Numbered from the stretch's first letter, positions 3,481 to 60,202 are shown. The stretch: DNA of 64,000 nucleotides from Raillietiella orientalis (GCA_036172245.1 JAYWIR010000006.1:868001-932000); one strand, 5' to 3'. Numbers and translations: made by a program. Notes: generated by a model not told the origin, from the sequence alone.

Positions 3481-4315
3481 TCAGTCCAACTGCAAGAATC
3501 GCAGCTGTGCCTTAAGATTCAGGATGTATTCCCTCTCTTTAAGAACTGATTATATCAACTGGCTATTTTCATTTTGTAGTTGTTCAATTTCTCTCTGTTC
3601 TTCCAATGAGAGTACTGCTTCTTCTGAGAGATGCTGACACTTTTTTAGCAACTGTACTAATTCCTGCAATTCTAAATGTTCTTGCACCAAATGCTGTTTC
3701 ACTTCTGTATTGTATTTTTTGAGTTCATCTTCCTGAAGCGACAACAGCAGACATTCCTTCCTGAGCTTCCCTGTATTCTCATGATCAACAATACTAGCAT
3801 CCTTTGGTTCCTCTGGACTACTTTTCTCTATGTTGGCCTGCTGTCCTTGTTGAAATTTTCGCAATTTTCTCTCGAGTTGTGTTGTAACACGCTGTACTTC
3901 CCATAACTGTTCTTCAATAGATGATGTACGTTCCTTCTTGTAAACTTGTGTGAAGATGGTTGAGCAAGGATTCTTGTTTTTGAATTTCCTGCTGAATCAC
4001 CAAAGGGCTTGTTAACTGGTCAGTGAGGGTGGCACCAAGTGGTGGAAGGTAGCGGCTAAGAGAAATTTTTAGAAAAACAGCCTCTCGATTTTTTAGCAAA
4101 ACAGCTAGGATGTGAGATGGCATTTAATCTTGGACCAAAGGAGCCAGCAAATTACTTAAAGTACTCAGGGTTAGGGTTGCATTCTTCTCCAAAACATGAT
4201 CCCAATGAGCACACAGCCAGCTAAGCAATAATCGGCAGGATGACTGGAGGCGAGGAAGCAGGGCATCTGCATAACTGTCAGACTATCATTTTTGCAGTTG
4301 CATGCTTTTTCAGAA
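3481..4315 (-). pseudogene. RALBP1: Disrupted RalA-binding protein 1 (RLIP76/Rlip) fragment: RhoGAP C-terminus, Ral-binding domain, C-terminal coiled coil
   Basis: Stitched minus-strand translation: ALLPRLQSSCRLLLSWLCAHWDHVLEK...LAPLVQD*MPSHILAVLLKNREAVF...IQQEIQKQESLLNHLHTSLQEG/(frameshift ~3920)SSIEEQLWEVQRVTTQLERKLRK...NENSQLI*SVLKEREYILNLKAQLRFLQLD*. This matches the RALBP1 motifs LLISWLxxHxDHV, EIRRQExLLNxLH, EExLWEVQRxxTxLKRKLR and ExIIxLRxQLRxLQ. Internal stops at 4124-4126 and 3550-3552; no introns. Confidence 0.85.
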
Positions 4316-4329
4316 AGAGTAAGAACCCG

Positions 4330-5527
4330 AACCGAAAGGGCGATCATGAAGGTAGGGCGGATGCTCAGACCCTCGGGGTACTGGGACGACGCGCTCTCAG
4401 GTCCGCGCGTTCGCTTCTCCCCGAGGGATTCGGGGATTTCCGGATGGCTCCTTCCAAACTAGGATGGCGACGGCTGGCTCGGGAGACTCTGGACAAACGC
4501 GCGCGACGGTTCCCTGTCCAGCGGAAGCCGCCACGTCCGAGGGAACGCGAGGGACGGCAACCCCTCTCTGTCTTTCACCTCCTCGAGCGCACTGCTCGGG
4601 ACAGGGGACAGGCGGCTGAGTTTTTCTCGCGACGGAGGGTTTTCATGCAGGCGGAAAGTCCGCTTTTGCAGGGAAAGCAAGAGGGAATAGGGGAGGGAGG
4701 TGGAGGGCCGACTGGCCAGGCCACAAGGAGCGACCCGGGATCCTCCGCTTTGCAGCCAACTCGACTGGGACGAGCGGTGGTCCGGCTGCGTCCTCCCTGG
4801 GGCACCAGGCGAACGGGAGACTTCACTGGCGGGTCTCCGGAAAAACTGAGGTCTGTTGCACTGGGGTCTCCCGTGCAACGCCTGCCGGCATCACACAGGG
4901 ATATTTGGACCCGAACTGTGCCAGGTGTGGGGAGCGGAAATCCCTCCGGCACCTCCTAGTGGACTGTGTTGCCTTCCGGCCCCTTTGGAGAGGCTTTGCT
5001 GCTTTCCTTGGAATCCCTGGAGGCAACACCAGAGGCGTTTTAAAGCGCCTCTTCCAGCGCGACGCCCTCAGGCCGGCCGCATCCCAAGCAGCATTCTGAT
5101 GCCCACGGGGCGGGATCGTAGCTGCATGGAGCAGCAATGCCAGAGAAGACCAGGACGACAAAAACGTCATCCATTTTGCTGTCCTCTTCATGGGGGTAGC
5201 GTCACGATGGCCCCATTTGGAAGTCTCGAAACAGAAACTTGCCAGCATCCTGCAAAGGACGAAGACACCCCCCAACACACAGTGATCTCTTCCTGACCTC
5301 CCAACTCACTTTTTGACTGTATGTTTGTTTTATTTTTTTGTTTTTGTTTTTTTTTTCTCTTTCCCTGTGCTGCCGAGACGAACCCTGCTGGCCTGCGCGC
5401 CAGTTCCCGGCAGGTTCCTTCTCGTAGTTATAAGTATGGTGACGGGATCAAACGTCCTACCACAGACGTTTATGTTTATTTTTTCTAAATAAACGCCCCG
5501 GCGTGACCGGGTGTCAACCAGTAAAAA
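4330..5527 (+). mobile_element. L1/Tx1-like LINE, 5'-truncated 3' fragment (ORF2 zf-RVT region + 3' UTR)
   Basis: Frameshifted LDWDERW...LLHWGLPCNA...LDPNCARCGERKSLRHLLVDCVAFRPLW (zf-RVT CxxC..HLLxDC); T-rich 3' UTR, AATAAA at 5488, terminal hairpin, short A run. Confidence 0.85.
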
Positions 5528-5635
5528 CTCCTTCCGTCTCCTCTGCCCTTCTTGTTTTTCCGATTCCTCTGGAAGCGAGGAAGAAGGGGCAGGGTCCGAG
5601 GAGAAGCTTTCGTGACTTTCGGGATCCAGGGTTCA

Positions 5636-6330
5636 GAACCTGATCACGCCGGGACGTTTATTTTGGAAAAAACAAAACAAAACAAACTATCAGCTAGAGG
5701 GGAAAAATATCCCCTCAAAAAACAAGAAATGCTCCCCCTCCTCTCCCCAAAAGTTTCTAAGGGTGAGCACGGTAAGCAGGTCGGTTTCCAAGAAGTAGGG
5801 AAGGGAACAGAGGGAGGGGACAATAAATAAATAAAAAAAGACGGGAGGGTAGGGACAGAGATATTTGGTATTAGACGTTCCTTCTCTTCTAGAAGCGACT
5901 CTGGATGGTTGTAATCTCCCTGCCGACTTCTTCTGGCAGTTGAGGTCATTTGCTGATGTCCTCATGAGGGCTGCTGCTGTGTTAGTGGCCTCTTTGCTAA
6001 GTACTGGACTCCAAAACATGGCGGACTGCCACTATGGTGCGGACGCAACAGATTGCTGCGATCACAGCACCCTTCTTCAGCCCACTTTCTGTAAAGGAGA
6101 GTTGCAGCAAGTCTTTAGCAGCATCCTGCGATCGACGGAGCGCCGAAGCGAGTCTCCGCCACAAGTCCTCGAGGGCCGGGATCCAGGACGGGAGCGCATC
6201 GTTCTCCCGGATATCCTGTACCAGCAGGCGTGTTAGGGAGGGAGGAAGGGAAGTGATAGTGCGGGAGAAGTTTCCCGGAGGTCGGGTCGAGCCGGATTTC
6301 CTTGGGACCTTGGATGATTGTCATTCGGCC
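5636..6330 (-). mobile_element. L1/Tx1-like LINE 3' fragment, tail-to-tail with the previous copy
   Basis: Minus strand ends AATAAACGTCCCGGCGTGATCAGG, the same terminal motif as 5488-5513; pyrimidine/T-rich UTR; degenerate ORF2 C-terminus upstream. Confidence 0.7.
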
Positions 6331-6334
6331 ATGC

Positions 6335-8165
6335 TGGGTCATGCTGGGGCATGCATACATTTATTGCGCACAGTAATGAAAATACATCGGTATGGTGGAG
6401 CCGTTGCTTCTACCACGTGCAAGGAAGCTGCCGAAGAGCGGCACGCAGACCGGAGAGGTCTGCATTGGCAGCGTGGCGAAAATAGAAACAGCAAAAAAAA
6501 AAAACGAAAACATACAAAACAGGGGACAGGAAATGTTACACGGGGAAGGGACCGAGGACGGGATCACGGTATGCTGCCTGGAGTCCTCTGCATCCTGCTC
6601 AGAATGCTGAGAAATTCTGTTCGTGTCTCACTTAGGTGGGACCATCTCGAAGCGGTCCTCAGGAAGATCCACGCCCGATGGGTGAAGTCCCTGCCATTTC
6701 GGCCTCTTCTCATGGAGTTCGAGGCCACCATGATCCCGTGAGCACATCAGAGGACTGCGAGGAACGCGGCAGTGCGGCACGCGCGAAGAGCGTTTGAAGA
6801 TGTTCCTGGAACTGTCCACTGGGGATCCTAGGGTCGCCGCGAGACCGAACCTCAATGGGGACAGAGGGTAGCACAGTCCGACAGCAGGTTTGGGAGGATC
6901 TTCTTCCCGCACCTGTCGCACTGAGCGTCCATGCTTCCCCACCGTGTCCAGTGGCGAAGGCGCGCTTTGCACGGTATTCCCCCATGCAACAGCAGAAACG
7001 CCAACTCCCACTTGAGGAGGGAGAGCGCCACTGTTCCAGCACGCTGGGAGCCACTTCACCTCCGGAGGGACGTCGAGCAGCTCCGCCCAGCGTGGAAGTC
7101 CTTGGGGTGGGACACTCGGGATCGCAGCATCCGTCACCTCCCGAGTTGTCCACACCCCTAGAAGTTCCTTCCTTGCTGCTATGCAGGACGTCACTTCCCG
7201 CCTTGCCAGGATTGCGCTGTTCCTTGCGTCCCTTAGGGAGGGCAGCACTGGATCAAGGAGAGAGGGGGGTACCTTGGATAATGGAAATCCTTCTGGGTTT
7301 TTCTGTTTTCGCTGCTTTCCTTCCAGCTTTTTTTTTGTTTGTCAAGAAGTGCTGAAGAACCGTCCGCTCCCTCTTTGACACCTTCCACGCCACCCGAGGA
7401 TGCGTGCAACCCTTCAAGTTAGGGGGAACTCAGGAGAACCGCTCCCTCCTTTTGGAATTTATTCTCTGGAAGGGTCCCTCCGGAGCAGAAAACGGGGAAG
7501 GAGGGGGAGGAGAGCTCCTGCCTGATTCCCGACAGGATGAGGATGTGGCTGCTGGGTCTATTCGAGGAAACTTCCACCCCCTCCTCTCCTCTCCATTTCT
7601 CCCTCGGGAGGCGTGGGTCTGGGGGTGCGGAATAGCGTTGTCGCCCTTCCGGAACCTGCCCGGAGGATGAGCAGACCCCCGGAATGAGGGAAAGGATGCT
7701 CCTTCTGTTTCCTCCTCCTCTGAAGAGACCCCGAAGGGACTCTTTCCAGTTTTTCCGAATTTCTCGAAGAGAGCAGAGCGCTTCTCGTACTCTGGAGAGG
7801 CATCAACCAGCTCCATGGAACGCAATGTAGGGTTCCTCCCAAGGTGGGGGACGGGTCCGTTCTCACAGCCAAAGAAGGTGGGTGGGAACCCCGAAAGGAA
7901 CAGGTGCTCCTTGATGCCTGGAAGAACTCCGGAGGACCAGCTTCCGATCCCATCCAGCCTATTAGGGCATCCGGGGGTTTCCGGCTTCGACCGGTGCTGC
8001 AACCGGAGCCCACAGGTCAACCAGCGTCATCCTGCCGGGGAGAACTCGAAGCCCACGAAACACTCCCCGTTTCTCGGGGATCTATCCTTCCCCGGTCAGG
8101 ATTCGAACCAGCAATGCGTGATGCCACACGGCCGCCAACACGGGCTGTTCGGCGACGGGGGGTCG
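6335..8165 (-). mobile_element. L1/Tx1-like LINE ~1.8-kb 3' fragment (post-RT region, zf-RVT, 3' UTR)
   Basis: LHGGIPCKARLRHWTRWGSMDAQCDRCG..NLLSDC zf-RVT. The 7700-8120 part is homologous to 40905-41480, 50175-50760 and 62340-63010. 3' UTR hairpin at 6439-6453 and AATAAA at 6360-6365. Confidence 0.8.

Positions 8166-13060: not shown

Positions 13061-13119
<59 letters not shown>
13061..13119. repeat. (AC)n microsatellite, ~29 units
   Basis: Uninterrupted AC run, followed by a short (GCA)n. Confidence 0.99.
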
Positions 13120-13599: not shown

Positions 13600-14475
13600 G
13601 CGCCCGAAAGATGAGTAACTCCCGAGTGCCGGCGCGCAGCCGGCACTCGGAGTCTTCGGTTCGCTTCCCGGGCGTTACCTTGAAGCTACGAGGCACAGGT
13701 GTTCGCTGCCACACTACTCTTCGGGGCAAAGATCGAGGAGGTTCAGGCATCTTTGGGAGAGAGCTAGTGGCACGGGACGAGCGGTGTATCTCCCGTGTAT
13801 GCCGCGCCATTAATCATCGGTTGTCCACAAGCCCAACGTTCCAAGGACGGCACCTTTCCCGGCGTGGAACGCGATACGGGAACACGGAATGCGAGCGGAG
13901 TGGAGCCCCGTATCAGGGAGGGGAACGGGCCGCCTCCCGAGATGAATTCGGTGGCAGAGATGCCTCTGCTCGTCCTCTCGAAGAGGAGTCCAGAGGGAGC
14001 CGTCCAGAGGGAGCCGTCCAGAGGGAGCCGTCCAGAGGGAGCCGTCCAGAGGGAGCCGTCCAGAGGGAGCCGTCCAGAGGGAAACCGTCCGTCGCTCGCG
14101 CGCGTTCATCCCGGAGCACTTAACGGCGGGAAGCGCTAATTAGAAAAATCGAGACGTTATCTGAGCCGGGACGCGCCAGTTCGGGAACTCGAGATTTGCA
14201 TCCTGACAGTTCGAGGCAGGGACAATCAGAATTCTATCACGACTCTGGACGTTCCGTTCTCCGGTGCTGCAAACGGCGCAATATTTGCCTCCTCCCCCTC
14301 CCCTCAGTGCATTTCGCCCGTACGCAATTTCATAGGAAGGGAAGGGTCGTCTAGGCCAGAAGGAACCTTCTGAGATGCGTAAGCTGCCGTTCCCGGACCG
14401 TCCAGAGCGGCAGGAATCCTCCGCGGGAAGGGTCCGGGAGTCACGCACGCGGCGAAGAGCCCACCCGCTTCCTTG
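13600..14475 (+). mobile_element. L1/Tx1-like ORF1 relic
   Basis: FGRELVARDERCISRVCR parallels the 9700 ORF1 motif; 14340-14474 is a diverged direct repeat of 10299-10441 (RCVSCRSxDx zinc-knuckle region). Confidence 0.55.
13988..14090. repeat. 14-bp minisatellite (GTCCAGAGGGAGCC) x6 plus one variant and a partial unit
   Basis: Six exact head-to-tail units from 13988, then GTCCAGAGGGAAACC and GTCC; no spacers. Confidence 0.98.
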
Positions 14476-22664: not shown

Positions 22665-23852
22665 GTAGGAAGGGGTCCCGAGGGTTGAGGGGTCAGCTGC
22701 AAGGAGGGTCGAAGGAAGAGGAAATGTGGAAAAAGAAGAAACCGGGGATGAAAATTTATTGCCCGAGACTTGGTACCCTTCTGCTCTCTTCCGAGAGGAA
22801 TGAAGCAGAGCAACAAAAAAGAGGGATCCTTGAGAAGGGAGGTCGACTTCCTGCAGCTTCTCCGCGCACTTTTCTCTCTTACCCTTCCCTCGAGAGAGAT
22901 CTTTCAGGAGCTCTTGAGAGCGAGGGGAGTCGAACTGCCATCTCTGCCATCCCTGAAGCCTCCCTTCGGACTGTGCCGCGCGGCTGTTCTGTTCTTTAAA
23001 GGGGAATCCGCTCTCATCCCAGCCTGAACGCCCCTTTCCCTTTTTATTTTCTCGCCATCCTTCTCCCTCCTGATACGCGTTCCTTTCCGCAGTCTCCCTT
23101 GCAAAAATTCTGCAGAAGGGAGAGAAGCCATGGGCCCACAGTTCAGGGGGGACGACCCTTCTGGTAAATGGAAAAGCAGGGCATCACCTCTTCCGCAAGC
23201 CCTCTACCCCGATGACCTTCATGGGCAGTTCCTTTCGTCCCGAGACATCGGCGGAGGGGACAGAGGTCGCCGGTGGTTTCTGAGAGCTGCGGCCATTCTC
23301 CGGCGCTCCTCACGCCTCTTCTCTACACCGGATGCGGGAACCTCTCTCCTCCCCCTTCTTCTCTCACGGGCATGCCGCCCTCGTGGAGGGAGGGAGACGG
23401 AGCAAAAAATTCCTCTCTGGAAAGTAGTTTTCCGGAAGCTTCTTAACTCTCCTCCCTTCCTCTTTCCCTTACCAGAGAGCTTCGATCGGAGATGGGGACG
23501 GGGGTGGACGCCGACGGATTTACTGGACGGAAGGCGAGAAAGGAGGAGTGACAAAGCCTCCGCCGACACGGTTCTTCCCCGACCCATACTGACAGAGCTT
23601 TCCAGACGCGCTTCACTGCCATTCCCTCCCCATTTCAAACTCAGAGACCCCCAACCCCTCATTCTTTCATCCCTTTCCCCTTTCAGAGTTCTTTCCCCTA
23701 AAGTTCCGCAGGAGCCGCATTGCCTCGGAGGTTTCGTCCGCCCTTGCCTCCGCCTCCGCCTGCAGGAAGCCGTCCCTGGTGACGCGCCTGCGCAGCATCC
23801 GAATCCCCTGGATCCCGCTGCTGGACGCCGCCGAGGAGCTCTTTCTGTGTAG

Positions 23853-24169
23853 GTGCCCGTCCCGCGGCCCTCGGCCCCTCCGCGTCCGGCGGTGGCGCAT
23901 CATTCCGCGCACGTGTGTGGACAGGTTGCTTCCCGGAGCGCTCCAGGAGAAGAGCGTGCCTGGAGTGGGCCAACGGGCTGCTGCGAGGTGAGGAACCACC
24001 CGCGGAAGACCTGGGACCAGGCTGGTCGGACGGGGAGCGCCTGTGCGCCCTGCTGTGCTGCCTGGACGCCTCCTGCGACTTGCACCCGCAGCTGCTGCGC
24101 CGGGAGAGCGCCTACCGCCGGGTCAGCTTCGCCCTGCGGCACGCCAGGAAGGCTTTCGGGGTGAAGACG
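23853..24169 (+). CDS. Exon 2: calponin-homology (filamin CH2-like) domain
   Basis: Acceptor CTCTTTCTGTGTAG; FRARVWTG..RRACLEWANGLL..DLGPGWSDGERLCALLCCLD..VSFALRHARKAFGVKT; donor ACG|GTAGGC. An alternative acceptor at 23924 gives the same frame. Confidence 0.85.
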
Positions 24170-24228
24170 GTAGGCGAGGGGATAGAAAGAGGGGCCTTCC
24201 ATCCACCCCACCCCGAACTCTTCTCTAG

Positions 24229-26388
24229 ACTCTGACCGCCAACGAGCTGATCTACTGGTCGCCCGAGTCCGAGAAGAAACTGGCGCAGCTGCTTTGGGGC
24301 CTGCGTCGGTCCTGGAGGTCATCGGGCGGGAAGGGAGCCACTGCCGGCGAATGGACGTCTCCTTGCGGCGTCCTCCCCGCTCCGCCCTGCGGAACCGCCG
24401 CCTCATCCGGCCCGGCCGCTCACGCGCCCAACGCGACCGGGCCAGGGCTCCTCTCCGCCCTCGCTCGCGTCAAGACCACTTTCGCAGTCAGGAACCTGCG
24501 GCCTCCCGAGGTTGACCTTGTCCTGGACATCCGCGGGCCATGTGGCGTGCGGTACAGCCAGAGGGTGACCTCCCGCTCCCCTCCCAGGATGAAGTCCGAG
24601 GAGCAGGGGATTTTCCTGCGCTACACCCTCCGGGGTGCGGAGGCGCGAGTGGACTACTCCCTCCCGCTCCCCGGGACCTACTCCCTGGGAGTCATCGTAA
24701 ACCGGAGGCACGTGACGGGCAGTCCCTTTTTACTGGAGGTCGAGGAGCCCCCGGAACCCCGCAGGGCGGACTCCCTGTCGCCCTCCCCGAACCCGATCCC
24801 CTCTTATTACGAGAAGAGGAGATCCAGGAACTCCCCTGCCCTCCTTTCCGGGACGCGGACGCCGTCCCGTCCCCTCAAGGGGAGGCTCAAGCACATCCCC
24901 TCCTTCGAGAGTGACCCATTGCTGCCCGCACCCTCGGGGGACGCGTATAGGGAGCCGCCCAGGAGGACGCAAAGCTGCCTGGAACGCTCAAGCGTCGTGG
25001 GCGTCGCCAAATGGGCGCTGCTCAAGCGCAAGTCCTCCTCCTTCTGCGGGGGAGCAGGAGCCTCCCCATGCCGCCCTCCCCCTCTCCTCAACGGCTGGAA
25101 CGACGTCGCCGCCCTGGAAAACCTCTTCAGACGCCTCCCGCCTCCCCGCTGCGAGATGGGAGGCACCCGGAGCTGCGAGTTCCCGGCGAGCTTCGCCTCC
25201 AGGTCGATGCCCGCGTCCCCGGGTCCCGATGCCCCTGGCGTGGACCACCGTCGCGTCTCGCGGTCCTGGAGTGCGTCCCACCTGTTCCGAGAGGGGGCAT
25301 CGAGGGGCTTGGATCGTCTCCGGGCTCCTTCGGCCTCCTTGTGCTCTCGGAAGGCGGCTGAGACGCCGCCGCCCTCGGACGACCTCCGGGAGGCAGCTCT
25401 CGAAGACACCCCGGCCCGAGCGCGCAGGGATCACCACCGTCCCCGAGGCCGCCTAGGTGAGTGTCCCAAAGGGCGGATCCAGCTCCCCCACCATCCCCTT
25501 CTTCCCCATCTCCCAGAGGACTCCGTGCGGGAGGAGCTCAGAAGCGGTGTGTGCAGTTTCCTGGGGGGTCGCCGGCCCGCGGAGCTGGGGATTCCTCCCC
25601 CCACGGGGGACCCGGAATCATCCGGCCGAGGCGACGACGGGGCCTCCAGGCGGGAGCAGTCACCAGACCGCTTCTTCCAGCTGAGATCCGACCATGGCGA
25701 TGGCAGCGCGCAGGAGGAGGAAGCCCTCATACAGGAGGTCCAGGAAGCCTCCCGAAAGCTCCTCCTGCCGGAGAAGCGGTCGCTCTCTTTGCCATCGATG
25801 CCCCCGCTGGGAGCGCCTCAGGCGGTGGAAGTGGCGGCGGCTCCGCACCCTGAGGAAAACATCTGTGCCGACGCCCGAGAAGCACGTCTTCCGGGGTCAC
25901 CATGCCCCCCGGCGAGCTCCAGCTGCATCGTCTCCGAGCGCCGGAAGTACTGGGACGACCTGCTGGCGGGAGGGGGGGGAAGCCCCCTGCTGCGCCGGTG
26001 GTGCGCCCCGCCTCAGAAGATGCTCGTCAAGAACCGCATCCGGAAGTACCACAGCGTCTTCGAGCCGACTTCAGGAGGGCCTTCGAGCCACCAGAGCTCT
26101 CTAGAGTCCCTACTGAATCCGGGCAGGGGAGAACGGAGGGTGGGGTTACGTAGGGCAGGAAGCAGAGGCGGTTCGGACGGAGACTGCCTCGCCTCCTCTC
26201 CCTCCCCGTCCCCTCCACCGCCTTCCCTAGAGACCGTATGCCCTTCCTCCCTCTCTCCCTCCTCTGGCGATCCAGGGGACCCCAGCGCGGACTTTCAGAG
26301 GAAGCTGCGCCACTGGAAGACGCTCTCCGGCTCCGTCGAGGTGCACGAGGGCGCCTCCCCGACCCCAAGGTCCCACGGCGACCACTGA
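24229..26388 (+). CDS. Exon 3: end of CH domain, one filamin (ABP280) Ig repeat, long Ser/Pro/Arg-rich tail
   Basis: 59-nt GT-AG intron 24170-24228; TLTANELI.. continues the CH domain; ATGPGL..TTFAV..LDIRGP..VDYSLPLPGTYSLGVIVNRRHVTGSPFLLEV is a canonical filamin repeat; 720 codons open; AATAAA at 26419. Confidence 0.88.
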   Translation, partial: TLTANELIYWSPESEKKLAQLLWGLRRSWRSSGGKGATAGEWTSPCGVLPAPPCGTAASSGPAAHAPNATGPGLLSALARVKTTFAVRNLRPPEVDLVLDIRGPCGVRYSQRVTSRSPPRMKSEEQGIFLRYTLRGAEARVDYSLPLPGTYSLGVIVNRRHVTGSPFLLEVEEPPEPRRADSLSPSPNPIPSYYEKRRSRNSPALLSGTRTPSRPLKGRLKHIPSFESDPLLPAPSGDAYREPPRRTQSCLERSSVVGVAKWALLKRKSSSFCGGAGASPCRPPPLLNGWNDVAALENLFRRLPPPRCEMGGTRSCEFPASFASRSMPASPGPDAPGVDHRRVSRSWSASHLFREGASRGLDRLRAPSASLCSRKAAETPPPSDDLREAALEDTPARARRDHHRPRGRLGECPKGRIQLPHHPLLPHLPEDSVREELRSGVCSFLGGRRPAELGIPPPTGDPESSGRGDDGASRREQSPDRFFQLRSDHGDGSAQEEEALIQEVQEASRKLLLPEKRSLSLPSMPPLGAPQAVEVAAAPHPEENICADAREARLPGSPCPPASSSCIVSERRKYWDDLLAGGGGSPLLRRWCAPPQKMLVKNRIRKYHSVFEPTSGGPSSHQSSLESLLNPGRGERRVGLRRAGSRGGSDGDCLASSPSPSPPPPSLETVCPSSLSPSSGDPGDPSADFQRKLRHWKTLSGSVEVHEGASPTPRSHGDH

Positions 26389-27550: not shown

Positions 27551-27593
27551 CCATGACTGGATGACCTGCCAGTGGCCAGCAGCTCTCAGATAG

Positions 27594-28030
27594 AAGGCAA
27601 GGTGGTTTTTCACCCGGATAGACCTGGGCATTTATTATTGAAATTTTAACAGAACAAATTTTTATAATAAAGTCTTTATGTTCATTCAGGCAGAACGTGG
27701 TTCCGTCTGTCTTGCAACACCTGTCTTTACCGGCCCGCAGGCCGGTGAGGTCCTCGCCGCAGGCGAATGGGATTCGAAAGCAACACAAGAACAAAAAAGA
27801 AAAAACGAAGAAGGGAGGACAATGTTCTCTGGGAAGGGGAGGAAAGGCAAGGTGGCTTTCCACCCGGGTAAGCTGGGGCTTTTATTATTAAAATTTTTAC
27901 AGTGAAAATTTCATAATGAAGTCTTGTCTTTTCCAATCTCATTAGAGTTTTTTTTTTTTTTTTTCAGAACACAATTTCTGGCTGTCTTGGGCACTTGTCC
28001 TTACCGACCCGCAGGCCGGTAAGGTGGTGG
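27594..28030 (-). mobile_element. Two tandem L1/Tx1-like 3' ends; the distal 238-bp copy (27606-27843) is flanked by a 12-bp direct repeat
   Basis: Both units carry CCGGCCTGCGGGYCGG, AATAATAAA and CCGGGTG; CCACCTTGCCTT occurs at 27844-27855 and 27594-27605 (minus strand). Confidence 0.8.
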
Positions 28031-28279
28031 AGCCTTCACATCAGGACTATTGGCTCCGGGCAGGCTGCTCCGGAAGAGTCCTCAGTTGAGGTCGCCATTG
28101 CTGAACCTCTCTTGCCGACGGCTCGATCACCGCCCCGGTGGCAGCACGTTCCGGAATGGCCAACCCCCACCCCCATCCCTGGCAAGAGAAGTTTCCTCTC
28201 CCTTCAAAAGAGCCCCCTCGTTCTGCTGCCTATCCTGATGCCTCCTCAAGAGGTTGGCTTTGTTTTTGCCTCAAGGTAA

Positions 28280-31879: not shown

Positions 31880-32390
31880 AACCAAGCCCGCTACGGCTTT
31901 CCCTTCCCCCCTCTCTCCCCTCGAAAACACCTCGTAGGTGTCTTGTCACACCGTGCTGCACTCGTACCATTCCTGCGGTGCACCTCGGAAGAAACAAAAC
32001 GCCGTCTGCGTTTCTGCGTGTGTCCTCGGAGGTCGGTCCGAGGATCCGTCCTTCCGCGAGAATCGCACCGAGCACTTGACAACCACGCCGAGCGCGTGAT
32101 GCAGGAACTCGGTGTATGTGTGTGTGTGTGGGAAGAGGGGAAGAGGTCGTCACCGATTACGTCTGCTGCAGATCTGTCGACCTTCCTGGCTCCAGTAGGT
32201 GGGGAATCACGAGCCCCCTTGTCCCGCGTATCCGACGTCTGCAGGCATGCCGAGCAGCTCAAGAAACCTTGCACGGCAACCCTGAGTGTGCGGGCCCTAC
32301 AGGGAACCAACCAGAGTGTTTGGAGAACCATTATCCCTCCAAGATCCCTGGCGGTTGGATTGACACCCTGTTGCGCGGGGCGTTCATCTA
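31880..32390 (+). mobile_element. L1-like RT core relic (subdomains 4-6)
   Basis: RSVRGSVLP and ITSAADLSTFL lie at the spacing of GVRQG..SP and YADD..FL. Confidence 0.45.
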
Positions 32391-32439
32391 TAAAAAAAAA
32401 TAAACATACAAGTCAATGGCAGGACTCTTGATCTTGCTA

Positions 32440-32900
32440 CGTTACAAATGTAACTATAAAAACCTGATGGGAACCGGCTCGCAGGCCGGCGAGGTTCGCC
32501 TCGGCAGCAGAGGGGAAGGGGGAACACACACACACAAAAATTAAAACAAAAAAAATATATACGAAAAAAAATTTGGGAGCGTTCGGGAAGGGATCATTGG
32601 GTGCTGGAGGACGTCCTCTGCATCCTATGCAGGATGCCGGCAAGTTCCTGTTTCAGGATCCCCAGGTAAGACCATCTTGACGCTATCCAGATGAAGAGGA
32701 CGGCACGATAAATGGCGTCCCTTCCAGGATGGTAACCTTGGTCAGAAGGATTCCCTGGATCTCCGTCCTCTCCGCGAACTGGACAACCTGGCTGCAGGGA
32801 GTCAGATCCTGGCAACCGGATGGATTCCTAAACGGGCACACAGCCGAGTCAAGAGGCGAAAAGAAAAGAGCAGGTGCTCTCTCTGCTTTGCACATCTCAA
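32440..32900 (-). mobile_element. L1/Tx1-like 3' fragment
   Basis: 3' UTR GCTGCCGAGGCGAACCTCGCCGGCCTGCGAGCCGGTTCCCATCAGGTT closely parallels 5369-5417; T-rich tract; degenerate ORF2 end. Confidence 0.75.
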
Positions 32901-33899: not shown

Positions 33900-36370
33900 A
33901 AGGGATGAGCTTAAGGTTAAGGGGAGAAGGCCAGGTGGTGCAAACGGAATCACGTGCTGTTGGAAACAGTGTGGGGAAACGAATGATAAAGTTTCCGGGT
34001 CCCTCTTAGAGTCCAGACTTCCATGAAACCAGGATAAGACTACCTTCCCATATGTGAAGTCTAATGAAGATATCCCAGAGGCAACCCGTCTCGAAAGTAA
34101 ACAAAGTGGCTCTGATCAAATCTCCTGGGAAGGGTTATAGGGAACGAAACAGCTCCCTGAGAAGGACGTGTGGCCTCAGGTTGGCTCATTTAAAGGATTA
34201 ACAAGTGTTCCCAGCGGTCTTCTGCAAATCGGGCAACACTCGAAAATGGTGCTGAGCGTCTATCGGTATGTCGAAGTTTTTCGGAAAATTGATGCTGTTA
34301 GACGGTCGACCTCATCTGCGGAAAATCAGGATCACTTTCCCGTTGGGTTCTTGCGAGCCCGAAGTGCCGGAACCGGTCGACTTTGCTCTGCGACAACGGC
34401 AGGAATGCGAGAGGGGGGCTGTGGAGGTCCTCAGCCACTAATGCAGCTTGCGTTGTGTGAGTGGGCGCAGCGTCGGCTCTGTTCGAAGAGCCAGGAGTAC
34501 ATCGGAAGGACTGCAAGTGAACAAACAGCATTTCAAGAGTTGGGCTTCTGTGGATGACTGTCTTTTCCTTGTTGGACACAAGAGCAAACAAAAGGGGCAC
34601 TATGGAGGCAGTGATTACTGTGGAGCAAGATCGACGTCCAAAGTCAACTCACTGATGGTGCAGCATGCAAAATCCGGAAAGCTCAGGACTTTAGTGTAGA
34701 AAAGCAAATCAGGTCTGTAGGGCTGTAAGCCCAACAGACCTGATTTGGCGAAACACTGGTGGCGACCCCATAGTGGAGAGCATACAAAGTGGGGACGATG
34801 GAAATCCTTTTGGGTCCTTCTGTATTCGCTGTTTTCCTTCCTGCTCTTCCTTTTTTTGAATTTTTTTCGGGAAGTTTGCTAAATACTGAAGAACCGTTCA
34901 TCTCTGTAGGGTAGGACGGTTCTTTATGACCTTATCCATTCCACCTGAGGGTGGGTGCCACTCTTCAAGTTATAGGGAGTGTCCGGGAGGGGACCATCCT
35001 ATGAATCCAGGAAGGCTCCGGCGGAAGGAGTCGTTTCCGTTGTCCTTTTTGTGATCCTGGAATACCACAGAACAACACAAAGGGAGCAGAAAAGGGAACG
35101 AAATCAAGCAACGGTGTGCGAGACAAGACGTTCCTATGGGAACCCACAACGGAAAACCCACCTTACAAAGTGTTCCTTTGTATTATCCAACGAAATCCAA
35201 GAACGTCGCAGAAGATATCGGATATCCAAGTACGCCTCGCACTCAAGCGAAGTGAGTTGTAGACCTGCTAGGGAAATTAGAAGATGAAACGGATTCTCCT
35301 TGAGAAATTATATGGGAAGCTTCAATCTTTGAAGAGAAGTTTTCAAGCCTCCTACCCATGCGCTCAAAAAAAAAGAAAAGAAAAAAGGACGTACATAAGG
35401 CTGTAAGTACAAGGGTAACACCACGTCTGTGGACCATGCCTTTATCGTGTTGGATTTTGCTGCGGAAGTGAAGCCTGCCAGTGAGAATTTAGGACGAACT
35501 GCAGAGACTGCACCGTTGAGGCTCACAGTGCAATACAACGCAGAAAGTGGTACACGAAATTTATGTGACGAAACCTGCCGGGAACACGGAGGAATCGAAA
35601 TCCACATCTCGGGCTGCGAAGCATGAGACCGAGTCAGCACCCCAAGGAAAAACCCATTGTGGGCCCTCCCTACACAAATGGTTTTCCTGCACGCATTCCC
35701 ACGGTTATGATTCTCATCCATTTGAACTTATTCGTAGCGGCAGTCCTGGCTAGAGGACACTGAATATACCTCAAAAAGAGTCGGATACCAGCCAGCAGCA
35801 CTGTTCGATATCCAGCATCCAGAGCAAGACAGACAGCGGTGCCAGTACGGCAGCTCACACCTAGCAGCAGTGATCCAGAGTGTATCTCAAGACCTTGGAA
35901 CCTCAACCAAACGAATCCAAATTCGTTGCAGAAAACTCCTTTATGGTAATCAGAGATGAAAGATCGAAGCGAAACGGTACGGTGGAACGGGGTCCACCGG
36001 AGGGTTCTCCTCTCTTCCTTCCAGCTTCCACCAGCACTCAAGGAACCGTCCGCTTAGGAACTCACGTTTTCCACGTCATCCGAGGGCGCGTGGTAAATCC
36101 TCATGCATGTTGGAGGGTGATCCACGGAGAGGACCACCCTATGAACCCAGGAAGGGCGGGCGTTCCTCTCACGCGTGGGAGGGAATCCCGAAGGGAACCA
36201 TTTCTTCCTTATTCTCACCGGAAGGACTCCCAGGATACGTTCGCTTCGCTTTTTCTTCTCTTAAGGGAACCTGAAAAAGAATCTGCTCTTGGAATTCCTC
36301 CTCCGGAGAACATCCGCTCCCTGTTTCCTCCTCTGAAGAGAACCCCGAAGGGAGACCAGCCATCATTCGA
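33900..36370 (-). mobile_element. Cluster of L1-like ORF2 relics (RT core ~33900-34560; post-RT pieces ~34750-35110 and ~35750-36370)
   Basis: CCTTCCTGGATTCATAGG..CCCTATAACTT.AGAGTG segment shared with 41400-41480 and 7390-7430; GGGGTTCTCTTCAGAGGAGGAAAC segment shared with 7710-7740 and 62760. Confidence 0.6.
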
Positions 36371-40079: not shown

Positions 40080-40900
40080 CTCAACTAAGCTCGCTGAGGC
40101 ACTTACCCCCGCCGCCCTCCCCAAAGGAACTCGTCACTAGGAGGAAATCCTGGACAACCCCTCGTGTTTGTGGACAGCTCCACGCTTCCCCTGACGTGGC
40201 AGGGCTCCGCATTGCAGCTGTGGCACCGTGCGATCCCATGCGACGCGCGGGTCCATCACTGGACGAGGAGGAGGGAAATCCTCCCTCTCCTGTTGCCGGT
40301 TTGCGTCGTTGCCCTCTTAAGTGTCCAGGAACGCGTCGCTGCGGCCCTCCTACTCCCGATGGCCAACGGCAGAGAGGGTTTTGGGGCGGTGCCTCTTCGA
40401 GAGTGACTCGATGTCTCCTGCAGCTTCCCTTGCAGTTCCGTGCTGCCTCCGTGGGATGGCGGCGGCGAGAAGCCGAGCCGAAAGAGGCCAGTCGAACGGT
40501 GAGGTCATCGCAATCGCCTGCTCCTTCGTGAGGAAGGCGACCGGATGGCCACATCTCTGCCAACAAAAGGAGGAAGCGGACCACATTCTCCAGAGGATGC
40601 GGAGGATGCCAGGAAGAAACCCATGATCCTTTTCCTTCCCCCATCCCCCTCAACGTACTTTTAAACCAAACTTTTGTGTGTATGTGTGTTTTTTTTGTTT
40701 ACCCCTTCCCCCACTCCTCCTGTGCGGACCTCATCGGTGAGCCGCTCACGAGAAGCGGCGCTTTCGAGGCGTTTCCCTTCGTGGTGTTGATGGGAAAAAA
40801 AGAAATACGAAGAAAGGCATTTTTATATTTTATATGACCGTTTTTTTTTGTAAATAGTTTTTTCACAATAAACTCCCCGACGTGACCGGGTGAAGATAAA
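40080..40900 (+). mobile_element. L1/Tx1-like 3' fragment
   Basis: WHRAIPCDARVHHWTR is homologous to the 6950 copy; T-rich UTR; AATAAACTCCCCGACGTGACCGGGTG at 40867-40892. Confidence 0.8.
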
Positions 40901-40904
40901 GGAT

Positions 40905-41500
40905 CAACGCCAGAGACATGGGTGAGTCGTGGGTTTCGAGTCCCCCCCGAACGATAACGCTGGTTGGCTTATATTCGGGTGTGGCACTGGTGGAAGCCGA
41001 AAAACCAGATGTCCCTGATGGGTGGCCGGGATTGGAAGTCGACTCTCTGGGGTTCTTCCAGGAATCAGAATCAGGGATTCCGGTTCCCCTAGGGGTTTCC
41101 CTCCGGTTGTGGAAGTGGACCCTCCATTTCGTGCCATGGAACTGACTCCTTTCCAGAGTGTCAAGAAAAGTCCTGCTCTTCTCGGGGAGCGCCTTTCAGA
41201 GAAACTGGGAAGCATCCTTTCGGGGCTGTCTTTAGAGTAGGAGGAAACGAAGAGGGGTGTTCCCTTGCGGGTTCCTTTCGGAGAAGGAAACTAGGAGTAG
41301 CTCCCTCTGGATCGAAAGGGTCCCTCCGAAGAGAATAAGAAGTTCCCTTGGAGGTCCACCCCGCCTCCAAGCTTAAGAGGAAGGGACTCCTTCCCCCGGA
41401 CCCTTCCTGGATTCATAGGTGGTCCCTACGGGGCTATTCCCTATAACTTCGAGAGTGACACGCACCCTGAGGTGGCGTGGACAGTGTTCAAGAGATTCGT
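40905..41500 (+). mobile_element. L1/Tx1-like post-RT ORF2 fragment directly abutting the previous 3' end
   Basis: DNA homology to 7700-8070(-), 50260-50760(+) and 62420-63010(+); TLHFVPW motif. Confidence 0.75.
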
Positions 41501-47339: not shown

Positions 47340-48040
47340 TTATTGCTTGTCAGACCTGAGGAAAAGCTGAATGCACTTTGAAAAGCATTTCCACAAGGCT
47401 AGGAGCGCAAGCCTCCAGAAGAGCGGTGCACCCTGTAGTGTGGGATCGAGCAGCTGGAAATTCCCATTTTCACCAAGCAACTTTCCATGCTGCAGGCCGA
47501 TTGCAAGCGTTCTTCCCCTAATGAGGAATATCCGAACAGATGGTAGTGCTGTTTGTGAATGTCCCGTGGAATCAAAAACCAGGTTCTCTTTTCCTCTGCA
47601 AGAATCGGAACCTCTTTCTTTTTCGCGAAGGACCTCCATGGATGGCCAATCGAGTTATCTGGCCGATAACTTACACCCTACAAACTGCTTCCGTGTGGTA
47701 GCTGGTTATTTCCGTCTTGCTTCAGCTAAGAGTCTTCCTCCTGGGAAATGACTTTTTGTTCGGTGGAATGCCCCCCCATCCCAATTGGTAGATTGGAAAA
47801 GGACGGGAGTTTCAGCTTTCGGTGCTCTGTGGTCCAGCTTACTGAGAAAGCCCCTGTGATTCTCGAAAGGAAAACATCCTGCTGCAGAAATGCTGGAACT
47901 TTAGTAAAACGAAGCATCTCAATGGTTGCTGGACAGGACTGGAAATCGGAAATTTGCTTCATTCATGACCACCCAAATTCATTGCGAGGATTCGCACTCG
48001 GTTTGTCGCTGATTTCTTTTCCAAACAAGAACAAATGAAT
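47340..48040 (-). mobile_element. CR1-like ORF2 C-terminal relic
   Basis: LDWPSMEVLRE resembles the LxWxSLExRR motif of CR1-group ORF2. Confidence 0.4.
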
Positions 48041-48059
48041 AGGACGTGAGGATCACCAA

Positions 48060-49830
48060 ATCGATAAAGATTTCAGGGAGAAAAGAAAAAGAAGAAAGGA
48101 AGCCGACGATCCTCTGGACGGCTGCATAGAAGGACAGGGAGGGTGTAGAGGAGGAGACAATAAATACATAAATAAAGGAGGAGAAGGAACGTAGGGTCGC
48201 AGTTCACACACTTGGCGTGTCTTCTGTGACCTGCGTCTAGTGGGTCTATGCAGGCGTTGGAATGCCCTACTTTCTTTCTCTTGAACTACAACCAAGGGAG
48301 ACTCAAAAACCAAGTAGAAATGGAGCGAAAAAGAAAGAAAGAAAGAGACAAGACCAAAAAAGAGAGACGGAAGTCAAAACATCGTCCTTGGTCACACGGA
48401 CGGTCGAAGGTCTCCCGTGTGACCGGAGGCGATATTTAGGAAATGTCGTTGAGAACGAGAGAGAATGAAAGACGTGAGGGATTCGAGAACACGAATCGGG
48501 AGCACAGAAAGGGAGTCCAGACTTTCGAACGGCAGACCAGACTTTCGACCTTTGTAGGGCGACAACAAGCACATGAGGTCCGTCGGTAACCTCGAGTTGG
48601 GTGAAAAAGGTCCTTAGCAGCTTCGCTGTGCCGCTTACAGGAAGGGACGACAGGACAAAGCGACGGGTGCCGTTGGATGTGCCTGCCGTCCAATCCCAGC
48701 GCGAATCGCACCAATCGTTGCTGTCCAAGAAGGGTGGTCATCATCCGAGCCTGAGACCGTTTATCGGAGAGGAGGAATCTTGGAAGTTTTGGTTAGTTAG
48801 TGTTAGAAGTTAGTGTTCCAAGGCACCGATTACAAGGTTTGTGAAGCGGAACTCGGCAATGCGAAACATGGTTTCGTTGTCCCGACCGTTTTCCCCCGGT
48901 TGCGCCGGTTCCTTTTCCAAATAAAGGAAAGGCAACCGGCCGCGTGGATAACGAAATCCACGAGTCCATCGGAGTTTCAGGATGAGGAGGAAAACCACCG
49001 ACCCGCAGGCCGGCTGCGCAGAAGAACAGGAATGGGGGCGGGGGACAAGAAATCGATAAATGAGAGGGGATGGAGGCGCATGGGGTCACCAGTCACACCT
49101 CCCTGCGTGTCTCCCGTGACCTGCGTGCGATGCAGGAGGCGCTCTTCCTTCGTTCTGGCATCATTCAAGGACCGCTTCGCCGCATTCCTCATCGGCGAGG
49201 CGTCGAGTTGGGCGGCCCTTCCCCTCGCCGGTGCTCCTGCGTGTTCCGGGACGACGGGGTCCTCCCGACGCAACACGGGACCGGGAAAGCAGAGGTCCCG
49301 CGTCAAGCGGCAGCGCCGCGGCGGCTCTTTCGCACCGTCCCGGTCTCGTTTCCGTGCTCTCTGGAAGGCTCCCGGAAAGCTGTCGCAGTTTGGAAAAACT
49401 CTGTCCCTGGTCCAGAGATGCCACCGCCGGTTTTGCGGGGAGGACGCACGGCGAAACCTCTTCCCCGTGCCACCATCTGCAGGGTGGGCACGGAGGTATC
49501 GGGATCGCAATGACCTACGGCGGCGGAATGTCCGGTTATCTTGCCCACGGAAGCGGTCCCCTTCTTCCCCTCTCTCCCTCCTCCGGCGCGGGTACCGGGC
49601 GTCACTGCCTCATCCAACTGGCCCGTCGTTCCTCCGACTCGCCGGTTTCTCCGCTTCTGCCACACAGTGACGAGATCGTCCACCGTCTGCATGGGATAAG
49701 GAGAGGCGATTTCCGGTGACCAAGCTCTGCTCTCTGTTGCAGTCCCTCCGGGACCGTCGCTAGGTTTTTTCCGGGAACAGGAAGCACTGAATACGATGAC
49801 TTGATTGTTGGGTTCTGGGGCACCGACAGA
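48060..49830 (-). mobile_element. Two tandem L1/Tx1-like 3' fragments (~48885-49830 and ~48060-48790)
   Basis: RRWHLWTRDRVFPNCD and WCDSRWDWT zf-RVT-proximal motifs; UTR hairpin at 48998-49013; terminal ACCGGCGCAACCGGGGGAAAA at ~48888-48910. Confidence 0.65.
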
Positions 49831-50164: not shown

Positions 50165-50760
50165 CCTCTTTCTCTTCTGCCCGCGCTAGCAGCCGTGTTG
50201 CTCCTCGCGTGGTACCCAAGCGCTGAGGGTTCGAATCCCTCCCAGGGCAGAATCGGCGCCGAGAATGGGGGGTGCTTCGTGGTTGTCGTTGAGCGCCGGA
50301 GGCACTGGTGGAAGACGGATGCCTCTGTTGACCGGCCGGGATTGGATATTGACCCTCCAGGGTCCTTCCGGGAATCACAGAGCCGCTTCCCTTCGCTTCG
50401 GGGCTCCCCTCCGGTTATGCAAATCTTACCATCCATCGGGGGACGGACCCTCCATCTCGTGCCATGAAGCTGGTTGACTGATGCCCCTACAGAATATCAG
50501 GGAGAGCACTGCTCCCTCCGGAAAGAATCCTTCGGAGAAATTCGGAAGCGTCCCGTCGGGGTTCTCGTCGGAGGAGGAAGATACAGGGAGCGTTTCCCTT
50601 GAGTGAAAGAAATAAGTAGAAACCCCTTCCTGGAGACCCCACCTGCAAGATCTTACCGGATTTTACTCCAAAGCATGAGAGGAACGGACTCTTTCCTCCA
50701 GAGTCCTTCCTGGATTCATGGGGTGATCCCTTCGGGGTCACCACCTAAATGGAAGGGAGA
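50165..50760 (+). mobile_element. L1/Tx1-like post-RT ORF2 fragment
   Basis: Homologous to 7700-8165(-), 40905-41430 and 62300-63000. Confidence 0.75.
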
Positions 50761-55859: not shown

Positions 55860-56970
55860 GCCGCAGCGCTGCCTACCCTCAGGTCAAGCGACGGCAACTG
55901 CCTACTCTGTGGTCAAGCGACGGCAGTTGCCAACTTGCGAGCTGAGGGCTTTCCTGCACTGTCGCAGGGTAGGCAAACCTCCCTCGCGAGCTGGTGGATG
56001 CTGCCGCTCTACGTATACTGGCGACGGGACTCTTTCAGTGGAGCCGCATTCCGAGTGCTGCCCTTTTTCAGAGGCACTTGTGGTCCCTCCCCGATGCCTG
56101 GACGCTTCCCGCCCTCCTGGAAGCAGGCTGCGTTGCTCTTCCTGCACTGGAGTGCAACGGGCGCCGACACCCTCGTTGACGGCACAGGTTGCGTCCCTGA
56201 ACTGCGACAGGTGCGAGTAGGCGGAGTCGACCTCCGACGCACCTGCTTTTCGACTGCGGCACCCTCCTCCGGGAACCGTGGCGGAGCGCTCCTGCACCAG
56301 GAGGACACTGCTCGCCACCTGCTGCAGCTCTTCGCCCTGACAAGGACTCTCGACGGGCCGCGCCGATCGCAACCGTCACAGCGCCATTGTTACGGCCCGT
56401 CATGTGCTGGAGGCGACGACGACGTGGCCAAGGGAGGTCACCGGGATGGCAGCCACCTCCAGCAGCCGCCCTGGAGGAGATCGTCGGCGTCCAGCGCCGG
56501 ATGGAATGGCGGACACCGGTGAACCTCCTCCCCAGCCTTCCTTAACGTTTTTTCCCACCTCATCCCCCTCTCCCTTTCGCTTCGTTCCCTTCCCCTTTTT
56601 GGATGCATTGATCTTGGTGTGTACATTGCATACAACTCCACGGATCCTCTCTCCTTCTTTGGAACCGTCAGGCCGTTGGAACCCAGAAGAGCGGCGATTC
56701 AGCCATGCTGTGCTTTCTGGAATCAGGCACAGCCAGCGAGTCAGCTCTCCCGGAGACCTCTGGAAGCGAACCAGGACTACCCGGATGTTCTCATTTTTCC
56801 TTCTTCTGCTGTCTCTCTTCCCCTCTCCCGTTCCGGACTTTCTGATGTCTCGACCTGCGTGTCGACGGACCCTTTCCAGGAACTTCTTTTGTCTTCGGTA
56901 GGGAACCAGCGTGTTTCCAACTGCTTTCTGTTTATGAAATAAACGTTCCCGGACGTGACAGGGTGAAAAA
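55860..56970 (+). mobile_element. L1/Tx1-like 3' fragment plus a second short 3' end (~56640-56970)
   Basis: NCDRCE*AES..HLLFDC zf-RVT; hairpin TCGAC-CTGCGT-GTCGA at 56850-56865; AATAAACGTTCCCGGACGTGACAGGGTGAAAAA terminus. Confidence 0.8.
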
Positions 56971-57389
56971 CTACGCCGAGGAGCAGTGCATTACGAGTGA
57001 AGCGTGAACCTAACGACAGGATTCACAATGAATCTGGAAACGGTAGTCATCATCATCAGGGCTTCCAGCAGGATTCCTCCGATCGCCGAGTTGGACCGAG
57101 CAATGAGATGGGATGCAACGAGATCGAACCTATGGAGAAACTTTCGAATGTGACCGTCCCTCCCGTTCGAAAACTTGAAAATTTCCGTCCCCTCACAAGG
57201 CCTACAAATTCCACGTTTCCCATCTGAGCGAATTCTTTGTTTCTTTCCTCGAAATTTAAAAGGATTCGTTTTTTGTGTGTGTGTGTGTGTTTTTCTCGTA
57301 AATGACGCGCGCTGGAGTATTCTAGCGAAGATCAGCGACACTTCGCTGTACTACGATTTAATTCGTTCGAAAGCTTGTAGATTTCGTGG

Positions 57390-59590: not shown

Positions 59591-59672
59591 CTAAGCGTTG
59601 CTTAGAAACGAACGAGAACTTCCAAAATATAGAAAGTCGCACATCCAGCATCGTCCGAATCAACCCTCGTTG

Positions 59673-60115
59673 ATGGGGGAAAGTGCTGTTCCAATGCCGG
59701 AGCAGCTGGCCGAGACCTCCCCTCCCGATCCAGGAATATGCACTGGAGAGGAAGGACCCTCTCTTTCTGACTGCTCCCCCTTCCGAGACGAAGATACGCT
59801 CGAGGATCGCGCGAGCGAAGAGGAGAGCGGAGGGTGCCGGATCTGTTACTCTGCGGAGGTGAGTCCGCAGAACCCTCTGGTCAGCGCCTGCCGATGCAAG
59901 GGCACCGTGGGCCTCGCCCACAACGACTGCCTGCTGCAGTGGATCAAGGACTTCCACCACGAGACGTGCGAGCTGTGCAGCACCAGGTTCCGCTTGGGTT
60001 TCAACCCCGCCGGAGACAGGGTCATCCTGGAGCACTCCTGCGAGAGCGAGCGCTGGGAGGCCATCAACGACAAAGTGATCAAGCCGCTCCTCAGGGCGAG
60101 TTTCCTCCTGATGAG
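59673..60115 (+). CDS. Exon 1 of RING-CH (MARCH-like, C4HC3) E3 ubiquitin ligase
   Basis: CRICYSAEVSPQNPLVSACRCKGTVGLAHNDCLLQWIKDFHHETCELC is a full RING-CH consensus; GC3-rich codons; donor AG|GTACCT. The start may be 59673 or 59694. Confidence 0.92.
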
Positions 60116-60202
60116 GTACCTTTCCCCACGGACCTTCGTGAAAAACCGCTACATTTTTTCTCCTTCCTCTTCTTCTTCCATTCTTCCCGCCTCCCTTTTT
60201 AG

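Follow-up and report, generated by a model that had tools for sequence, protein, structure and literature searches.

Ten related retroelement tails in a single stretch of the genome of Raillietiella orientalis share a homologous site in their 3′ UTR, at which seven of them keep a small hairpin with the loop CTGCGN (CUGCGN in RNA). Together with a terminal block further downstream, this site forms one of two conserved islands. There is about an even chance that the hairpin represents a cis-acting RNA element that is under selection in the 3′ UTR of a LINE and would likely be read, along with the terminal block, by the element's own ORF2 protein. What carries this reading is that the two islands are found at 60–66% identity in copies whose ORF tails are 32–49% identical and whose remaining UTR is near-random, which argues for selection in the source lineages.

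Architecture of the tail copies

The sample comprises ten tail copies from one 64-kb window, meaning the whole stretch of DNA that was analyzed (GCA_036172245.1 JAYWIR010000006.1:868001-932000). Going from 5′ to 3′ in element sense, the ~240-nt 3′ UTR runs from the ORF stop through a T-rich tract to the hairpin and then, across ~90 variable nt, to the terminal block, which is herein also termed the box. The features of the individual copies are as follows.

5387..5404, plus strand: hairpin of c5393, GCTGGC-CTGCGC-GCCAGT, with the loop at 5393-5398
5369-5374 and 5409-5413, plus strand: outer stem of c5393, GCTGCC pairing with GGCAG
5481..5519, plus strand: terminal box of c5393, AATAAACGCCCCGGCGTGACCGGGTGTCAACC (nhmmer 33.7 bits; leave-one-out E=5e-8), where inter-copy similarity stops
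4620..5273, plus strand: ORF2-like C-terminal tail of c5393, with one internal stop, ending ~120 nt 5′ of the hairpin
~4917-4967, plus strand: CX2CX7HX4C knuckle of c5393 (zf-RVT E=0.22)
6439..6452, minus strand: hairpin of c6448, CGGT-CTGCGT-GCCG, with 4 bp; the MFE structure is a competing double hairpin
6579-6938, minus strand: ORF tail of c6448, located by tblastn
6323-6359, minus strand: weak box of c6448, missed in leave-one-out
27729..27746, minus strand: hairpin of c27740, ACCGGC-CTGCGG-GCCGGT (z=-2.3; hold-out CM E=0.0073)
27605-27643, minus strand: box of c27740 (leave-one-out E=0.069)
27999..28024, minus strand: hairpin of c28014, CCTTACCGGC-CTGCGG-GTCGGTAAGG, with a 10-bp stem (z=-5.4)
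27855-27893, minus strand: box of c28014, with the c27740 unit directly after it (tandem)
32473..32490, minus strand: hairpin of c32484, GCCGGC-CTGCGA-GCCGGT
32358-32395, minus strand: box of c32484
32609-32722, minus strand: ORF C-terminus of c32484
48997..49014, minus strand: hairpin of c49008, GCCGGC-CTGCGG-GTCGGT (hold-out CM E=1.6, the third-best non-training match)
48884-48925, minus strand: weak box of c49008, missed in leave-one-out
56850..56865, plus strand: hairpin of c56855, TCGAC-CTGCGT-GTCGA (E=6.3 with the hold-out CM, within the noise)
56931-56975, plus strand: box of c56855 (leave-one-out rank 1, E=0.092)
56143-56410, plus strand: weak knuckle-like frame of c56855
40733..40751, plus strand: homologous site of c40735, with a different small hairpin, GTGAG-CCG-CTCAC
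40860-40900, plus strand: box of c40735
40393-40611, plus strand: ORF C-terminus of c40735
5770..5786, minus strand: decayed site of c5775, ACCGAC-CTGCTT-ACCG
5631-5669, minus strand: box of c5775 (leave-one-out E=0.0065)
48105..48122, minus strand: decayed site of c48115, GCCGTC-CAGAGG-ATCGTC
47985-48028, minus strand: very weak box of c48115, missed in leave-one-out

All seven CTGCGN-loop hairpins listed in the original prediction were located in element sense, the one at 6448- with 4 bp only, and the three sites that it had called decayed (5775-, 40735+, and 48115-) lie at the homologous position in the alignments. The exact CTGCG is kept in 7/10 copies, and the hairpin is missing from the other three. 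The GTGAG-CCG-CTCAC hairpin, which c40735 carries in place of the CTGCGN hairpin, may reflect decay or a lineage-specific replacement. c56855 is regarded as a putative member of the family on the basis of its box (leave-one-out E=0.092) and its spacing.

Conserved islands of the 3′ UTR

Over all ten copies, the mean pairwise identity amounts to 66% in the 16-nt hairpin core, 69% in the hairpin loop, and 60% in the terminal block, as opposed to 24–32% in all other segments of the UTR (flanks, intervening UTR, and upstream tract), with the values of the islands being inflated since MAFFT anchors on any shared word. The original prediction had named a hairpin no better conserved than the flanking UTR as an outcome that would refute it, and the comparison shows the opposite. 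The structured cis signal that had been proposed for the retroelement tail stands insofar as the hairpin is far better conserved than its surroundings. It does not stand as the one signal of the tail, since the hairpin is one of two islands and lies 120–159 nt from the 3′ end; it is the terminal block that occupies the usual site of stringent-type signals, the hairpin being internal. Likewise, the description of the flanks as poorly alignable applies to most of the UTR (24–32%), but neither to the 3′-terminal island nor to 5393, 32484, and 6448, which align throughout (50–68%).

The terminal block is of the type AATAAACGCCCCGGCGTGACCGGGTGAAAAAC, with the order AATAAA..CCGGGTG..AAAAC. Searched with an nhmmer profile of the block, the window shows a single site for each of the ten copies and no further match above noise. 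When each copy is left out in turn, 7/10 blocks are the best non-training match (E 5e-8 to 0.092), and the blocks of c6448, c49008, and c48115 are not recovered. Five of the seven intact copies have 120–126 nt between the start of the loop and the end of the box; for the remaining two, the distance is 135 and 159 nt. Within the block there is possibly a covarying hairpin of 4 bp, ACGC-CCCG-GCGT, with the variants AAGC/GCTT, ACGT/ACGT, and ATGC/GCAT. It is 72.5% paired compared with 10–35% in slid registers and contains three double-change cells, a count reached by 34/500 shuffles. A CCCGG/CCGGG pairing of the box was tried as well and discarded, as it exhibits no covariation.

The layout of the block bears on a different role of the hairpin, namely that it serves 3′-end formation, stability, or export of the transcript, as an auxiliary of AAUAAA or as a protective structure, and has no part in RT recognition. 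The conserved AATAAA of the box is located ~25 nt before inter-copy similarity ends, and ~25 nt before the cleavage site is the usual distance of an AAUAAA; furthermore, the hairpin lies 76–121 nt upstream of the box start and is preceded by a long U-rich tract. However, neither poly(A) nor an A-rich tail or microsatellite follows the box at any of the ten ends, which argues for a start of reverse transcription within the terminal block instead of on a poly(A). In place of the AATAAA, c49008 and c48115 have GGAAAA and c6448 has ATGCAT, yet c49008 and c6448 keep the hairpin. A transcript-related role of this kind is considered unlikely; it and RT recognition do not exclude each other.

In several copies, a T-rich tract of 30–45 nt (U-rich in RNA) follows the ORF stop and precedes the hairpin. 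A poly(A) tail or an A-rich region might be its pairing partner.

5320-5360, plus strand: T-rich tract
32530-32575, minus strand: T-rich tract
6480-6520, minus strand: T-rich tract
27770-27800, minus strand: T-rich tract

Folding and covariation of the hairpin

The inner helix of the hairpin is 73% paired over the ten copies, and three of its six pairs are changed on both sides. The compensating changes that had been predicted are present, with C-G turning into U-A in c5393, and G-C into A-U as well as C-G into U-A in c56855. The claim of a covarying stem is upheld by these three compensatory pairs, but its support is moderate at n=10, since the covariation score is reached by 26/500 shuffles and the percentage paired by 13/500, in a control that related sequences may surpass even when they form no structure. 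With both helices taken together, 64% are paired in the true register compared with 29–46% in slid registers, for a structure that was derived from the same ten sequences. Two of the three compensatory pairs originate from c56855, which yet reaches only E=6.3 with the hold-out CM. Overall, the covariation appears real but thin. The non-Watson-Crick pairs of the intact stems are six G-U and no A-C, which would fit a hairpin in the sense-strand RNA, the count being biased by selection because G-U was allowed when a stem was called intact.

RNAalifold recovers the hairpin de novo from the seven intact copies. It also proposes a third helix in the variable region, which was judged by eye to be trivial A/U-rich pairing and was set aside. 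A CM built from the seven hairpins scores its training copies at 24.7–31.2 bits and the best other site at 15.9 bits (E=0.23). With a CM built from three copies of one subfamily, the top three non-training matches are 27740 (E=0.0073), 28014 (E=0.14), and 49008 (E=1.6). The proposed hairpin is the MFE structure in 5/7 copies, and only c28014 (z=-5.4) and c27740 (z=-2.3) are clearly below shuffles in folding energy. Two copies, c5393 and c6448, have a competing fold of greater stability; in the latter, it is a pair of hairpins that takes CUGC into a stem (z=-4.45). Folding of the hairpin in vivo is predicted from these models. The additional outer stem (G)CTGCC/GGCAG(C), noted earlier for two copies, is indeed intact in c5393 and c6448, and it is decayed in c32484. 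As a feature of the whole family it was rejected, being 53% paired and confined to one subfamily.

The same alignment allows the site to be viewed as a plain sequence motif, CCGG-CCTGCG-CCGG, that a protein of the host or of the element recognizes in single-stranded RNA or in palindromic DNA, the hairpin potential being a by-product of the palindrome. Consistent with this, the CTGCG loop and the central G-C pairs are near-invariant (at columns 45-56, 9/10 copies have G-C), c5393 and c6448 have a fold more stable than the proposed hairpin, and the inner stem contains three compensatory cells only. On the other hand, CTGGC/GCCAG and TCGAC/GTCGA replace CCGGC/GCCGG with complementarity being kept, which a fixed DNA half-site would not tolerate, and the six G-U pairs without any A-C, selection-biased as this count is, break the symmetry of the DNA and keep the pairing of the sense-strand RNA. 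A mere motif is therefore an improbable explanation.

Occurrence of the hairpin in the window

The pentamer CTGCG is common, with 189 sites in the window, so that it is the hairpin form that counts. The whole window was scanned for CTGCGN between complementary arms, with G-U allowed. Seven such hairpins have a stem of ≥5 bp. In 200 dinucleotide shuffles, the number averages 1.16 and never exceeds 5, with 0/200 reaching seven. At ≥4 bp, the window has ten, and the shuffles average 2.99 and go up to 10. The count of seven takes in a hairpin at 19445-, which is outside the earlier list, and leaves out c6448 with its 4 bp. When the words in hexaloops of the window are ranked, CTGCG comes first once TG/GT microsatellite words are set aside.

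The hairpin at 19445- has no terminal box by nhmmer, is absent from the CM matches, and shows no other feature of the family. It was rejected as a family member for want of a box and a CM match and is treated as a chance hairpin, which is probable given that about one is expected by chance and that no other family feature accompanies it.

It is highly improbable that the hairpin has no function at all and that the similarity is left over from a GC-rich palindrome of common origin, possibly boosted by anchoring in the alignment, with one or two hairpins added by chance. In favor of this view, chance alone predicts ~1.2 such hairpins in the window, the one at 19445- stands without any other family feature, c56855 scores within the noise of the hold-out CM, and word anchoring by MAFFT inflates the identity of the islands. 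Against it, 66% in the hairpin core compared with 24–32% in the flanks and 32–49% in the ORF tails is hard to obtain by neutral decay, a box that can be detected independently lies at a constant distance, and 0/200 shuffles reach the observed number of hairpins.

ORF tail and identity of the element

Four copies (c5393, c6448, c40735, and c32484) share an ORF C-terminus, and their four tails are the only matches in the window to a profile of its last 38 residues. The frame of c5393 reads DPNCARCGERKSLRHLLVDC and ends with VASRWPHLEVSKQKLASILQR. Searched by tblastn, this tail matches the region upstream of 6448 with 32% over 125 aa (E=2e-10, including the knuckle and interrupted by stops), upstream of 40735 with 41% over 75 aa (E=7e-10), and upstream of 32484 with 49% over 35 aa; upstream of 56855, the match is weak and knuckle-like. 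The knuckle CX2CX7HX4C is clear in c5393, and interrupted or weak in c6448 and c56855. With ORF tails being 32–49% identical, the copies derive from diverged lineages.

Counted back from the hairpin, the homology of the ORF tail extends over ~490 nt in c6448, 340 nt in c40735, 240 nt in c32484, and at least 770 nt in c5393, and the coding tail is absent in six copies. A common 3′ end with a varying 5′ cut-off is a hallmark of non-LTR retrotransposons. The common 3′ end and the differing 5′ cut-offs seen here lead to the reading as a LINE, and the copies can reasonably be taken as 5′-truncated LINE tails. As for a partner SINE, no tRNA-like head was found in the window, in which six copies are without the coding tail, nor did an Rfam scan at gathering score bring up a 5S or 7SL head.

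The assignment to the L1/Tx1 clade, which was part of the original prediction, is not borne out in the window, where no RT or endonuclease is found, zf-RVT is below threshold (E=0.22), and poly(A) is present at 0/10 ends, the last point being weak evidence since old tails can decay. No Pfam match to an RT or an endonuclease was obtained in 158/158 stop-to-stop ORFs of ≥130 aa, in 118 element-strand ORFs of 60–129 aa upstream of the hairpins, or in six read-through frames of 3 kb, all copies in the window being truncated, so that a full-length copy elsewhere could carry these domains. The sole family found on the knuckle CARCGERKSLRHLLVDC is zf-RVT, with 12.6 bits against a cutoff of 27.5.

A search for homologous proteins of the c5393 tail ORF found none, phmmer against 1.84 billion representatives gave one match (E=9.4e-4), and comparison with PDB sequences gave unrelated matches only (E≥0.19). 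A metagenome scan with the pattern of the terminal box yielded 120 loci, apparently all by chance. One of the 120 scores at E<1e-3 against the box profile, none has the AATAAA context, and two have an upstream CTGCGN hairpin, at 66% and 74% GC. No Rfam family, retrotransposon 3′ elements included, is matched in the window at gathering score (0 matches). When 5270-5530 and 27590-28060 were scanned permissively, the only matches were unrelated ones with E≥0.27, none of them on the hairpin or the conserved core of the box.

Comparison with known LINE tails

A stem-loop in the 3′ UTRs of human L1 and Alu is reportedly the subject of one study (PMC5135761). The stem-loops of L2-type tails lie within the last tens of nt of the 3′ end. 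Eel UnaL2 and zebrafish ZfL2-1/ZfL2-2 of the L2 clade resemble the present family in that their 3′ UTR contains a stem-loop whose loop is conserved and whose stem varies but stays complementary, and in that there is no dependence on a retained poly(A). The position differs, with the hairpin described here being 120–159 nt from the end, in contrast to the last tens of nt in UnaL2 and ZfL2. Here, moreover, no terminal short repeats are seen, a CCHC knuckle is located in the ORF tail, and there is no sequence or Rfam match. Recognition by the cognate ORF2 is the expected role in those systems (PMC4176376), and here it would be expected by analogy.

For ZfL2, binding of ORF2 to its own 3′ stem-loop is described (PMC4176376). 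R2 and SART1 are named as stringent-type elements in the same source. Their retrotransposition requires the whole structured 3′ UTR and more than a terminal hairpin, to which the UTR with two islands described here is loosely comparable. These site-specific insect elements differ in belonging to other clades and in having no sequence similarity to the present family, for which there is no Rfam match.

In stringent-type LINE and SINE tails, the nucleotides of the loop are conserved and changes in the stem are compensatory, as set out in PMC3747384. Within the L1 clade, in which a poly(A) 3′ end is usual (PMC3747384), the same pattern of loop and stem is reported for one monocot lineage (PMC3747384, PMC3472496). 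If the L1-like reading is right, this lineage (Ohshima 2012/2013) is alike in its conserved 3′ hairpin, compensatory stem, and conserved loop. It differs in that its last 45 nt are the conserved region, in its UCU loop with flanking CGAG, and in ending with poly(A); the tails analyzed here have a CUGCG loop, an internal hairpin, a separate terminal block, and no poly(A) kept. A description of a tail element with a CUGCG loop was not found in the literature searched, a route by which absence is not provable.

Clustering of copies and other features of the window

The copies are clustered, with five pairs within 1 kb compared with 1.4 expected (P about 0.016). Same-orientation pairs closer than 1 kb are 6448 followed by 5775, 28014 followed by 27740 (directly abutting), and 49008 followed by 48115. 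5393 and 5775 form a tail-to-tail pair, 112 nt apart. The clustering could result from insertion near existing tails, from a duplicated UTR, or from a repeat-rich intergenic region.

5519-6359: copy cluster
27605-28024: copy cluster
47985-49014: copy cluster

A second family of dispersed repeats, with 64–75% identity over 150–400 nt and no Pfam match, is observed in the same window. One of its copies begins right at the end of the c40735 tail.

7700-8100: second repeat family
36160-36350: second repeat family
40883-41250: second repeat family
50300-50590: second repeat family
62400-62800: second repeat family

The window matches to Pfam that reach the curated score are ordinary host genes. They are listed along with two matches just below the Pfam cutoff.

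23783-24232, plus strand: CH domain, curated score reached
3553-3996, minus strand: RLIP76 (short match), curated score reached
59595-60461, plus strand: RINGv, curated score reached
24229-26385, plus strand: filamin repeat, just below cutoff
61492-62010, plus strand: coproporphyrinogen oxidase fragment, just below cutoff

The CH domain is accompanied by a filamin-like ORF of 719 aa (together 23783-26385, plus strand). No database homologue of this ORF was found at E≤1e-5, which indicates that the host is poorly represented in databases. A look-up in a protein atlas gave filamin-like clusters below 0.9, with no informative taxon. A perfect 14-nt minisatellite, GTCCAGAGGGAGCC × 6.8, and an (AC)29 microsatellite are also seen, at 13988-14082 and 13061-13119, respectively.

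Proposed mode of recognition and its implications

If the hairpin is indeed a selected element of the tail, then by analogy with UnaL2/ZfL2, R2, and SART1 the ORF2 protein would recognize a structured tail consisting of the hairpin and the terminal block, and this recognition would select the element's own RNA. Target-primed reverse transcription would then start at the 3′ end, meaning in the terminal block, with no need for poly(A). Accounted for in this manner, the element would end at CCGGGUG..AAAAC without a retained poly(A), with the AAUAAA and the possible 4-bp hairpin lying within the block. The CUGCGN hexaloop is possibly a C1-G5 pseudo-triloop, for which IRE, HBV epsilon, and TAR provide analogies. 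A more specific version holds that a lineage with an L1/Tx1-type ORF2 tail uses a bipartite stringent signal, made up of the internal CUGCGN hairpin and a structured terminal block ~125 nt downstream, and reverse transcribes without poly(A); this version is tentative and must be called doubtful.

Nothing is overturned by such a tail, since conserved loops and covarying stems are expected in most LINE clades. Should the L1-like assignment hold, the family would be one more case for judging how frequently stringent rather than poly(A) recognition of 3′ ends occurs in the L1 clade, and if the bipartite L1/Tx1 reading is true, it would constitute a second, independent stringent recognition in this clade, with an unusual two-part architecture. 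The bipartite reading might also explain the same-orientation pairs of copies, provided that the tail itself is a preferred target. No Rfam model matches the hairpin, which, if confirmed genome-wide, would become a new RNA family for the annotation of retroelements. The two-island layout offers a concrete target for mutational tests of RT recognition in LINEs.
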